Shown one piece after another: positions 34,764 through 38,079 of a stretch of DNA of 64,000 nt. The DNA is from Cladosporium halotolerans (Eukaryota): positions 682,001-746,000 of the forward strand of contig NW_027191455.1 in the NCBI RefSeq assembly GCF_011745625.1. Direction: 5' to 3'. Below the pieces are notes generated by a model, which did not search any database, was not told the origin of the DNA, and saw nothing but the letters and a program-made list of their open reading frames with translations. A program made the position numbers and the translations under genes. The first letter of the stretch is position 1. Each line of letters starts with the position of its first letter.

Positions 34764-35309
34764 CGCATCTTGCGCGCCGCTCTCGCTTCCCCACACTCAT
34801 CTGCAGAGCCTCGATCCCTCCACGCCGCCGCTGGAACACATGCAACGATCCTTCTGATGGCTGAGGAAGCCCTCCGTCATCTCAGTCATGACCTGACAAG
34901 AGATTGCTGAAGTCTTTTTCCGGAAAGCTTCATGGTTATGCTTCTACTCTCGCATTACCTTAAGTAAACCCCATCATTTGTCATATATGCACGCTGCGCC
35001 GGACCTGCGCTAGGTAGTGCCGTGTAACCACCTCGACCTCTGTCCCGCGGCGCTGTGAACGACCTCCAGACCACGTGCAAACCCTGCACTTGGGACATCC
35101 CCGGTCATCTATTGTCTGGGGTATCTCGCTGCATCATACCGCTTCCGTCTAGTCTTCAAGACACCGCCGAGCTTTGCCATAAGGTAATATTTCGTCTCAC
35201 CCTGACCCCTTCACGCCTTCTATCAACGCGAGCGGTGACCTCCGACAACGCCAACTTCGCCGTCCGTTCCGGTGTGCAACCACACGATCCACCAAGGATT
35301 TTTTCTGCA

Positions 35310-36383
35310 TTAGTCGCCCCAAGCGAGCTTCAGTCCTGGACTCGCGAGCCCGTAATTCTCCTCTGCCGCCAACGTCTCCTCATCGAATCCCGCGGATGAC
35401 CCTCTGTTCAGTACGAAGGAAGCGCTGATAGCGAGCTTGGCCACGGAAGCGAGGAACAACATCGCCGCAGGCTGCAGCACGAGAAATCCACCGAGTAAGC
35501 AGCCGGCTCCGTATGAGGCGATGAACGTCAGACGGCGTTTGCGCGGCAAATTGCCCCTGTCAAGGAGTCGTGGGTTGTTCAAGGTGGAGATCTAGACCAA
35601 CGGTCAATTGCGATTCGCGATGCCTGCAGCACTGGTACTGTACCTACCATGGCACCCGTGACCATTGTCGTATTCAGCTCAGCCAATCCCACAGTGACCG
35701 CCAGGCTGGTCTGACCTGAGGCTGCGAGCGAAAGGAGAGCCACAATCATGAAGACTGTTACCCCAGTTGCTTCCGCAGGCCCAGTGATCCATTGGATCGC
35801 AGCAGCTGTTAGTACCAGGGAGGTCTGGACAAAATTTGTCAAAAGAAGCCACGCCCGCTTTCTAGGACGAGCGTAGTGAGCCAGACTGCCGAATAAAAAA
35901 TTGCCTAGGCAGAAGCTGTGCAAGGTCAGGTCGGATCAATCTCACTTGATTTCGGTCGAGGGGTTGCCATACAAAAAGATCGAAGCGACAACATTTTGTT
36001 CCATTTTCGATCCTGGCGGCTCCCTGCCGGTAACATATACTGCGAGGAACAGGAAGTTCCCTGCGGAATTGGTCAGCCGGGCGTCTTGCGTGAGCATCCG
36101 TAGCTTTTCCTACCAGTCTGCTTGGAAGCGAATACACGATAGTTGAGAAATGTCGTCACGTCTATTACGCCGGAGACGATCGTCATCTACGACGAAAGAG
36201 ATGGTGAGCACACAACGATTTCATGATAGTGGGAGTATCATACTTGCAAGACATCAGCACAGCGACACACCCAAAGGGAAGGATATTCAGCATTCATACA
36301 TGGCACTCACCCAGAAATAGCTGATGCTCCAACAATTGACACTTCAGCAGGTCTTGCTCGAGGAATCTGGTAAGTTCCGACAT
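35310..36383 (-). CDS. DUF1275 (YoaK-like) multi-pass membrane protein; exons 36383-36312, 36186-36114, 36060-35973, 35915-35648, 35591-35310
   Basis: Spliced MSELTRFLEQDLLKCQLLEHQLFL|MTIVSGVIDVTTFLNYRVFASKQTG|NFLFLAV...GQTSLAVTVGLAELNTTMVTGAM|ISTLNNPRL...RRLTFIASYGAGCLLGG. The G.D...F...QTGN and TT..TG motifs match DUF1275. Confidence 0.82.
36187..36311 (-). other. [D1,2] spliceosomal twin intron (stwintron) in the DUF1275 gene
   Basis: G|GTGAGT...GCTGAT..CAAG|TATGA...GCTCAC...TAG. The internal intron 36310-36243 (68 nt) splits the external donor G^TATGA. The external intron is 57 nt. Only two-step excision keeps the frame. Confidence 0.8.
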
Positions 36384-36688
36384 GCCTACGCGCTTCGCTC
36401 TCCAGCAGCATTGGGTACTCGACAGGGTCAAGTAAATCTCAAATGCCGTTTTGCCAGATTCATGGTCAAACAACAAAGGAGTCGAGGCATTCGCCAAATG
36501 CAGACGCAGGAGGCTTTGACCGGACTCACTGTCAAAACAATCATGTTTCTTTGTTCAAGTCTAGCAGTTGGTCTTCAAGTTCTTGGTGTCACCATCCCAC
36601 CGCATTGGAGTCGATTGGCTACGAATACTGTTTGTGTATTTTCCCTTTTTCATCCAAAATTGATTAACAGAGGTCTCCCAATGCTGAT

Positions 36689-37513
36689 CTACTCTTCTGG
36701 ATATACCATTTTCCTCGTCACACCACCATCAACCACCATCTCCGTCCCAGTCACACCGTCATTCTCAGAGAGATACTGCACAGCCCGCAAAATGTCTTCC
36801 ACCTTCCCCACTCGCCCAGTCAAATGCCACGCATGATCCATCTCACTGAGCCCATCCTCCCACTTCCGCCCCTGCTCATCAGCTTCCTTGCACTCGTTCT
36901 CCACATGAATCCAGCCAGGAATGATAGCGTTCACGCGCACACCACGAGGCGCGAGCGATACAGCCATGCTCTGCGACAGACCAAGTAGCCCTGCTTTTGT
37001 GGTAGCATAGGCCTCGCTGTCTGGCTCGGACATGGTCGCGCGTGTCGACGAGATGTGAATGATGTTGCCACCAGACGGGCGAGATGAGGATTTGGCCAAC
37101 AGGGGCGTGCAATGCTGGCTCATGAGCATTGGAGCTGTGAGATTCGTCTCCAGAGTTGCATGCCAGAGTTCGAGCGTCATGTCGGAAATATTCGCGCCGC
37201 CGACCCCGGCTGTGTAGCCCGCATTGTTGACGAGGACGTCAAGGTGGCCGTCAAAGAGTTTGCTGGCTGATTGGACTGCGGAGGTGATTTCGGACGGTTG
37301 CCGGAGGTTGCAAGTTACGGTGTCGAAGTCGCGTCCTCGCGTGTATTTCTTGGAAAAAGTGGCTGCGGTGTGGTCGAGTTCTTCGACGTTGTTGTCAAGG
37401 ATGCATACGCGGTGGCCGGATTGGAGTAGGAGGCGGCTGAGCCCCCGGCCAATGCCTCGAGCGCCACCGGTGATTAAGTAGTTTCGCGCTGTTGATGCGG
37501 ACATTGTAGCCAA
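36689..37513 (-). CDS. Classical short-chain dehydrogenase/reductase
   Basis: TGGARGIG, LVNNAG, catalytic S...YATTK, RVNAIIPGWI and VVDGG. Intronless. Confidence 0.93.
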   Translation of the reverse strand: MATMSASTARNYLITGGARGIGRGLSRLLLQSGHRVCILDNNVEELDHTAATFSKKYTRGRDFDTVTCNLRQPSEITSAVQSASKLFDGHLDVLVNNAGYTAGVGGANISDMTLELWHATLETNLTAPMLMSQHCTPLLAKSSSRPSGGNIIHISSTRATMSEPDSEAYATTKAGLLGLSQSMAVSLAPRGVRVNAIIPGWIHVENECKEADEQGRKWEDGLSEMDHAWHLTGRVGKVEDILRAVQYLSENDGVTGTEMVVDGGVTRKMVYPEE

Positions 37514-38079
37514 CAGGTTGATTATTATAATCGATCAATTGATGTCCGTAGGATATCTGGACCAAGGGAACTGCATTTTAAGAGCTCATGGAGATTCACC
37601 GAAACCTGTGATGTCATCCACTGCTTGATACATTACATATAGCTTACAACTTCATTCATCGCAACAACAGTCAAGGTGACACGGAAGCGATCGTTTTGGT
37701 TAAGTTTCTGCTGTAGCCGACGATGCGATACTGTTCTATTCAGATTTTTGTAAGTCCGCCGCCGACGTAGACAAGTCCGAGATTTAAAAAGCAGAGTAAG
37801 CTCTGGTCGCAAGGCGAATCCTTCGAGCCTTACGCCCGTAACTTATCCAAAACGAACTATGGCACCAGACAGATGCTTACATGACTTAGTCATGTAGTGC
37901 TGTCTCAGCGGCGGTGTCTGTATCAAGACATTGGTAGGCTGGTACTGTAGAGACACTCTTCGACCGATGCCTGTAACAGGCGACACGCATTGCGACACGG
38001 TTCTGTCGAGGCTTGATATAAGTAGCTCTCGACCTTCCAGCATGACTTGCAGCACATCCAACCAAGAACCGAATAAACG

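Follow-up and report, generated by a model that had tools for sequence, protein, structure and literature searches.

The first intervening sequence of a gene for a DUF1275 (YoaK-like) membrane protein is most probably a phase-0 [D1,2] stwintron, a nested spliceosomal twin intron, of 125 nt. It would extend from 36311 to 36187 on the minus strand of a 64,000-nucleotide stretch of Cladosporium halotolerans DNA (contig NW_027191455.1, positions 682,001 to 746,000; hereafter the window, whose own positions are used throughout), within a five-exon gene at 36383-35310 of the same strand. A preliminary description of this DNA had proposed the structure, and every coordinate and motif that it gave is present in the sequence. 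The proposed stwintron is a new, positionally conserved example of the known [D1,2] type, and it calls for no new mechanism.

In the predicted pathway, an intron-definition spliceosome would first remove a 68-nt internal intron (36310-36243). G36311 would thereby be joined to the sequence TATGA (36242-36238), which completes GTATGA as the donor of an external intron of 57 nt, and this second intron would be excised using the branch sequence GCTCAC and the acceptor TAG at 36187. Leu24 (CTG) would then be joined to Met25 (ATG) in a protein of 260 residues, in which the last part of exon 1 and the first part of exon 2 would together encode the first transmembrane helix. Direct splicing of the internal donor to the distal acceptor would instead leave one G behind and destroy the frame. 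We infer from the sequence that splicing proceeds in this order and that it takes place in this organism; productive two-step splicing here is likely, though not certain. The elements concerned are as follows.

36312..36383, minus strand: exon 1, the ATG at 36383 and 23 further codons, the last of them complete (CTG, Leu24)
36311, minus strand: G1 of the split external donor, the "extra G" retained in the mRNA if a plain GTGAGT-TAG intron were removed
36243..36310, minus strand: internal intron, 68 nt; donor GTGAGT at 36310-36305, branch site GCTGAT at 36258-36253, acceptor AAG at 36245-36243
36294..36299, minus strand: in-frame GTATGA within the internal intron, a competing donor; splicing to TAG 36187 gives a 113-nt intron and inserts four residues (GECH)
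36187..36242, minus strand: remainder of the external intron, 56 nt (57 with G36311); TATGA at 36242-36238, branch-like GCTCAC at 36209-36204, TAG at 36189-36187
36114..36186, minus strand: exon 2, which opens with ATG (Met25) and encodes MTIVSG...KQTG

The other introns of the gene measure 53, 57, and 56 nt, so that 68 and 57 nt are ordinary sizes for the two constituent introns, as had been noted earlier.

Reading frame and competing splice routes

Removal of all 125 nt (36311-36187) gives an open coding sequence of 783 nt. In contrast, removal of 124 nt, from GTGAGT to TAG, keeps G36311 and shifts the frame. The preliminary description was correct about this extra G and the frame shift, but the stop at the next exon/intron boundary in which it saw the shifted frame end (TAG, 36112-36110) is encountered only in transcripts that retain intron 2; if intron 2 is spliced as well, the shifted frame ends at a stop in exon 4. 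Only the complete two-step removal restores both the reading frame and the junction peptide that is conserved in the family. The alternative [A2,3] route had been dismissed because the next exon does not start with G. The first base of exon 2 is indeed an A, both in the window and in each of the four relatives in which this region could be compared, and thus only the [D1,2] route can be productive.

The earlier consideration of routes had, however, overlooked the in-frame donor GTATGA at 36299-36294. Micro-exon solutions and all single GT..AG pairs were enumerated in the window, and the single 113-nt intron from this donor to TAG 36187 was the sole one among them that keeps the frame. That such an ordinary intron, with four extra residues in the protein, is the productive route is very doubtful. 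It does keep the frame without a stop, and its donor hexamer is the same as that of the re-formed external donor. Nevertheless, it was rejected as the main route, since all 28 family members aligned (28/28) are gapped at all four inserted columns, and the insertion would place Glu and His in the first membrane helix. Additionally, a consensus GTGAGT 11 nt upstream would compete with this donor, the intron would be twice as long as the other introns of the gene, and no equivalent donor is conserved among the related loci described below, where in-frame single-intron alternatives either vary or are absent (different donors in L001 and L004, a poor one in L003, and none in L005).

The protein junction across the DUF1275 family

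Searches that used exon 4 or a Cladosporium homologue as the query found DUF1275 proteins of Cladosporium and Mycosphaerellaceae. A HMMER search with a Cercospora orthologue listed 150 family representatives, from which 21 whose match reaches the N-terminus were taken. The 125-nt removal joins ...QLFL to MTIVSG..., and the resulting N-terminus aligns without a gap to seven orthologues and to the spliced models of four related loci, over a stretch that begins with the conserved F-x-x-Q-D/E segment in exon 1 and takes in the T/S-G and KQTG motifs encoded by exon 2. The junction 36312^36186 is free of gaps in 28 of 28 family members, counting orthologues and family representatives together. The N-terminal alignment and this gap count argue that exon 1 is part of the protein and that 36312^36186 is the predicted mature junction. 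The match between exon 1 and orthologue N-termini, without which the preliminary description would have given up its model, was thus found.

The proteins available from close relatives are less informative at this position. No spliced protein from a Cladosporium-type relative was present among the 34 homologue hits or the 21 of 150 representatives examined; the database proteins of this clade are unspliced open reading frame (ORF) calls or faulty models. For instance, the model P0003 from Cladosporium sp. NU13 begins four residues into exon 2, and P0004 from C. fusiforme shows an insertion of approximately 34 residues that separates the exon 1 peptide from the exon 2 peptide. Both public models look mis-called at the first intron, and failure at this very junction is what a stwintron would be expected to cause.

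The nested layout in Cladosporium-like relatives

One scan of metagenome contigs with the family alignment yielded seven Cladosporium-like loci that are 55-62% identical in exon 4. The region from exon 1 to exon 2 is present in four of these (L001, L003, L004, and L005), while L002 and L006 are truncated at the 5' end and L007 ends before the region. In all four loci that hold it, exon 1 ends in a complete codon, followed by a G and then by an internal donor, at the same position as in the window. The 5' hybrid motif is G+GTAAGT in L001, L003, and L004 and G+GTATGT in L005. An internal branch motif lies 13-15 nt before a YAG, the donor re-forms as YAG|TAGGT or CAG|TGAGT, and a second branch motif, CTGAT, lies 19-20 nt before a TAG that is followed by ATG or ATT. 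The AG|TAGGT element is still present in the 5'-truncated loci L002 and L006. GCTCAC in the window is located approximately 19 nt from the 3' end, which matches the placement of CTGAT in the four relatives.

The total length of the stwintron is 156, 159, 118, and 134 nt in the four relatives versus 125 nt in the window, and is not confined to multiples of three. Such free length is expected of intron sequence, and the layout itself is retained. The preliminary description had suggested a search among orthologues for a conserved G-GT...AG-T arrangement; it is kept at the same position in four of four loci, and intron sequence and length have diverged around it. As judged from these loci, the nested layout is inherited and interrupts the gene at one and the same codon boundary in the window and in Cladosporium-like relatives. 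Among L001, L003, and L004, synonymous and amino-acid-changing codon differences in exon 1 number 7:2, 7:1, and 4:1 over 19 codons, which indicates that exon 1 is under purifying selection. Additionally, L004 has ATT in place of ATG at the start of exon 2 (L004:341-343). Exon 1 must thus supply the start codon in that locus, and the Met at the junction is not required as a start.

Agreement with the published [D1,2] search formula

The layout was also compared with Model A, the search formula for [D1,2] stwintrons given in section 2.1 of PMC9024468, which was run as a regular expression with a chance rate derived from 100 first-order Markov sequences. As set out in that section, Model A calls for a G followed by one of 24 listed internal donor hexamers, a branch motif DYTRAY 25-80 nt further on, and an HAG 4-20 nt later (PMC9024468). 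The internal HAG is then followed by a T and four more bases that complete a listed donor, and the external DYTRAY lies 25-110 nt past this hybrid motif, with an HAG 4-20 nt later and each intron at least 42 nt long (PMC9024468). The strict formula matches L001, L003, L004, and L005 exactly at the junction, with 0.01 matches expected per 64 kb of random sequence. One further match in L005 starts 37 nt upstream and is out of frame.

Within the window, the 5' hybrid motif is formed by G36311 and GTGAGT, and the internal branch site GCTGAT stands 46 nt after the donor and is followed, 7 nt later, by AAG. The 3' hybrid motif AAG|TATGA gives GTATGA, which is a listed donor. At the external 3' end, 14 nt separate the branch sequence from TAG, and the two introns, at 68 and 57 nt, are of sufficient length.

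Integrity of the sequence at the splice junction

Four contigs from sequencing runs were available for comparison, namely X24 (a second sample of the same organism), X5 (a soil run, approximately 94% identical), X1 (from organism A, approximately 94% identical), and X7. All four are DNA-like, and they either retain introns 2-4 or cover exon 4 alone. X24 is identical to the window over 35250-36455 except for one indel at 35554. X5 spans the region, and its sole indel in the stwintron falls within a GT run of the internal intron (36264-36270). The run has gained 2 nt, or one GT unit, in X5, an ordinary case of microsatellite slippage within an intron.

These contigs bear on whether the extra G is real. 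It sits in a run of three, and another G run in the gene (35554) does differ by one base between two samples; it could be supposed that the additional base is a sequencing or assembly error and that the gene really has an ordinary 124-nt phase-0 intron, GTGAGT...TAG, at this place. However, X24 is identical at this run, so the extra G is not an assembly error, X5 has no indel at the site, and the same extra G precedes the internal donor in all four relatives. An error at this position is scarcely credible.

Weaker signals and constraint in the window

Several observations weigh against a working [D1,2] stwintron in this gene. The strict Model A formula has no match in the window, since the external branch sequence has a C where an R is needed at position 4. 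The preliminary description had placed the external branch site at 36209-36204; GCTCAC is indeed present there, but it does not fit the published DYTRAY, which the CTGAT of L001, L003, L004, and L005 does. More generally, the signals in the window are weaker than those of the relatives, given an internal acceptor AAG rather than YAG, the external donor GTATGA, and the branch GCTCAC. The relatives themselves come from just three metagenome samples, and because L001, L003, and L004 are close kin they amount to approximately three independent lineages. Of the 24 runs listed, the only one recorded as RNA held 0.06 of the words of the stretch. Exon 2 alone covers positions 5-29 of the DUF1275 profile, and a protein that began at ATG 36186 would lose very little of the Pfam domain.

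Other observations of this kind concern the state of the gene. X24 (depth 31.6) has one G fewer in the GGGG of exon 5 (35554-35557), which would shift the frame of the last approximately 80 residues. At this run it is the version in the window, and not that in X24, that agrees with the orthologues; the X24 deletion reflects a null allele of that isolate or else an error in the contig. X1 lacks 36204-36335 (132 nt), which comprises most of the stwintron, including the external branch, and the last eight codons of exon 1. This contig resembles DNA in that it keeps introns 2-4 and intergenic sequence, and it has no frame-breaking indel in exons 2-5. Finally, exonic differences to X1 and X5 comprise 8 synonymous and 9 non-synonymous changes (17 exonic differences among the 40 of 91 differences listed), a ratio that points to moderate constraint only. 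The gene may be under relaxed constraint, or dispensable, in the lineage of the window.

The branch motif weakens the assignment to the [D1,2] class but does not exclude it. If DYTRAY is relaxed to DYTNAY, the 64-kb window holds a single match, at 36187-36311 on the minus strand, with 0.06 expected per 64 kb on both strands, and thus the arrangement is beyond chance.

Since ATG is the first codon of exon 2 both in the window and in three of the four relatives, one could also suppose that the protein starts at Met25 (ATG 36186). Exon 1 would then be a leader or an upstream ORF, and the intron would lie in the 5' untranslated region, where the frame is irrelevant. The reach of exon 2 into the DUF1275 profile, the start of the P0003 model within the same segment, and the X1 contig, which has lost the end of exon 1 and yet shows no frame-breaking indel in exons 2-5, are all compatible with this. 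Nevertheless, all 28 family members aligned conserve the exon 1 peptide and carry it uninterrupted into the exon 2 segment, among them proteins that have no break there. Codon changes in exon 1 among relatives are mainly synonymous, and the Met25 codon is ATT in L004. A start at Met25 would also leave the conserved G|GT...AG|T layout unexplained. This explanation is very improbable.

It could likewise be argued that the layout is inherited and the gene is decaying here, with a two-step route that is inefficient or dead and products that are mostly frame-shifted or N-terminally truncated. This appears unlikely. Decay would agree with a GCTCAC that fails DYTRAY, an AAG acceptor, and a GTATGA donor where all four relatives have consensus signals, as well as with the 1-nt deletion in exon 5 of X24, the loss of 36204-36335 in X1, and the split of the 17 listed exonic differences into 8 synonymous and 9 non-synonymous changes. 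However, the window keeps an open reading frame through all five exons and a full-length spliced model. Every donor and acceptor element is still on the published lists, and intron 2 of the same gene uses GTAGGA, which indicates that A is tolerated at donor position 6. Moreover, the 8:9 ratio exceeds the approximately 1:3 synonymous ratio without selection, a figure that is a rough estimate rather than a computed one.

A regulatory role can also be considered, in which the stwintron acts as a splicing switch and three outcomes compete: the two-step full-length product, a G-retaining frame-shifted product that is probably targeted by nonsense-mediated decay (NMD), and a short form from the exon 2 ATG. 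This is quite unlikely. If true, the switch would determine how much of this functionally uncharacterized membrane protein is made or which N-terminus it carries, and the close relative with the 132-nt deletion would hold a natural "switch-off" allele, locked to the short form. Tuning of expression through NMD, also raised in the preliminary description, is speculation.

Comparison with known stwintrons and related systems

In the recursive splicing of animals, a first splice at a ratchet point regenerates a 5' splice site for a second splice. The regenerated donor lies wholly downstream (AG|GTAAGT) and the introns are very long, whereas here the G would come from upstream and both introns are approximately 60 nt.

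A closer parallel is the [D1,2] stwintron of lipS, in which an internal intron splits the external donor between G1 and U2 (PMC5639578). The same paper gives dozens of [D1,2] candidates for Aspergillus nidulans, with lipS proven by cDNA and a sequenced splicing intermediate (PMC5639578). The predicted DUF1275 stwintron shares the G1/U2 split, with internal and external introns of 68 and 57 nt versus 52-53 and 46-57 nt in lipS. An AAG acceptor occurs in both, as one external acceptor in the lipS case and as the internal acceptor here, and both are found at one position across taxa and are mis-called by automatic annotation (PMC5639578). Unlike the lipS stwintron, which is in phase 1 and splits a Pro codon, the present one is in phase 0, at the first intron position, and in another gene family; it is predicted from DNA, in contrast to the sequenced cDNA and intermediate of lipS (PMC5639578).

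Larger sets come from the Xylariales: for a single Hypoxylon genome 117 [D1,2] stwintrons are reported, and 14 Xylariales together have 288 sequence-similar ones. With those of Hypoxylon sp. CO27-5, as characterized in PMC9024468, the present case shares the five-motif architecture, and the four related loci fit Model A exactly. A BLAST comparison of the 125-nt stwintron with the 64-kb window revealed no sister copies, with matches of at most 14 nt besides itself, and the folding of the stwintron is not unusual (fold z-score -0.07), with no near-terminal inverted repeat. It is thus neither a repeated nor a symmetrical stwintron. The lack of sister copies in the window is similar to the sequence-unrelated class of Hypoxylon, while the lack of excess folding (z -0.07) sets it apart from the symmetrical sister stwintrons of that fungus (PMC9024468). 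It further differs from the Hypoxylon set in its external branch GCTCAC, which lies outside Model A, in the long spacing of 14 nt between the external branch and acceptor motifs compared with the usual 6 nt, and in its host, which is a Cladosporium-related Dothideomycete and not a member of the Xylariales (PMC9024468).

The DHA1 antiporter [D1,2]/[A2,3] stwintron, as described by Fekete et al. (2017, PMC5587772), has constituent introns that overlap by one G. The same overlap is seen here, in that G36243 is the last base of the internal acceptor and the possible first base of GTATGA. The [A2,3] route of DHA1, however, needs a downstream exon starting with G, in place of which an A is found here and in the four relatives (PMC5587772). 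One-step missplicing of [D1,2] stwintrons, which leaves one intronic G and causes a frameshift, is described from RNA reads in Xylariales (PMC12403724). The 36311^36186 product predicted here would be the same missplicing, and the near-terminal inverted repeat of that documented case is not seen in the present stwintron (PMC12403724).

The preliminary description knew of no stwintron reported in the DUF1275 family. This is consistent with the literature searched and with two catalogue supplements: no report joining the terms "stwintron" and "DUF1275" was found, and DUF1275 is absent from the supplements of PMC9024468 and PMC12403724, other stwintron supplements being outside the search.

Implications for annotation and intron evolution

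The value of the case lies in correct annotation and in intron evolution. What appears to be a frameshift at the start of the gene would be a conserved nested intron, and the gene should probably be annotated as encoding a 260-residue protein from 36383. If the reading is right, it adds Cladosporium-like Dothideomycetes to a [D1,2] catalogue drawn mostly from Aspergilli and Xylariales. The locus also offers a natural series for the origin and loss of such introns, given that a close relative is deleted across the stwintron and that Mycosphaerellaceae models are continuous at the junction.

Remaining gene features and neighborhood

Downstream of exon 2, the gene has the following features.

36061..36113, minus strand: intron 2, 53 nt (GTAGGA...GGCTGAC...CAG)
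35973..36060, minus strand: exon 3, with no stop in the translated model
35916..35972, minus strand: intron 3, 57 nt (GTATGG...CCTGAC...CAG)
35648..35915, minus strand: exon 4, the core of the DUF1275 domain; Pfam match and 60-62% identity to Cladosporium proteins
35592..35647, minus strand: intron 4, 56 nt (GTAGGT...ATTGAC...TAG)
35310..35591, minus strand: exon 5, stop TAA at 35312-35310; weak DUF1275 match at profile positions 153-191

Exon 4 alone matches Pfam PF06912 with an E-value of 2.2e-9 and 37.8 bits (curated cut-off 25.4), and the homologues that were found also carry PF06912. The match of exon 2 to positions 5-29 of the 193-position profile has an E-value of 0.0016 and, taken alone, is under the curated cut-off. 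At intron 4 of L001, L002, L003, and L006, tblastn runs through in one frame (204 aligned residues, 612 nt). Similarly, the proteins P0001 and P0002, which are prokaryote-style ORF calls, contain an in-frame translation of intron 4.

Directly upstream of the DUF1275 gene is a single-exon short-chain dehydrogenase (SDR) gene (36689-37534, minus strand). Its product has a 79%-identical homologue in Cladosporium fusiforme, whose locus tag, 004169, adjoins that of the DUF1275 homologue, 004168. An SDR gene also lies upstream of DUF1275 in L005, and not in L001 or L003. The neighbor shared with C. fusiforme and L005 indicates that these loci are orthologous.

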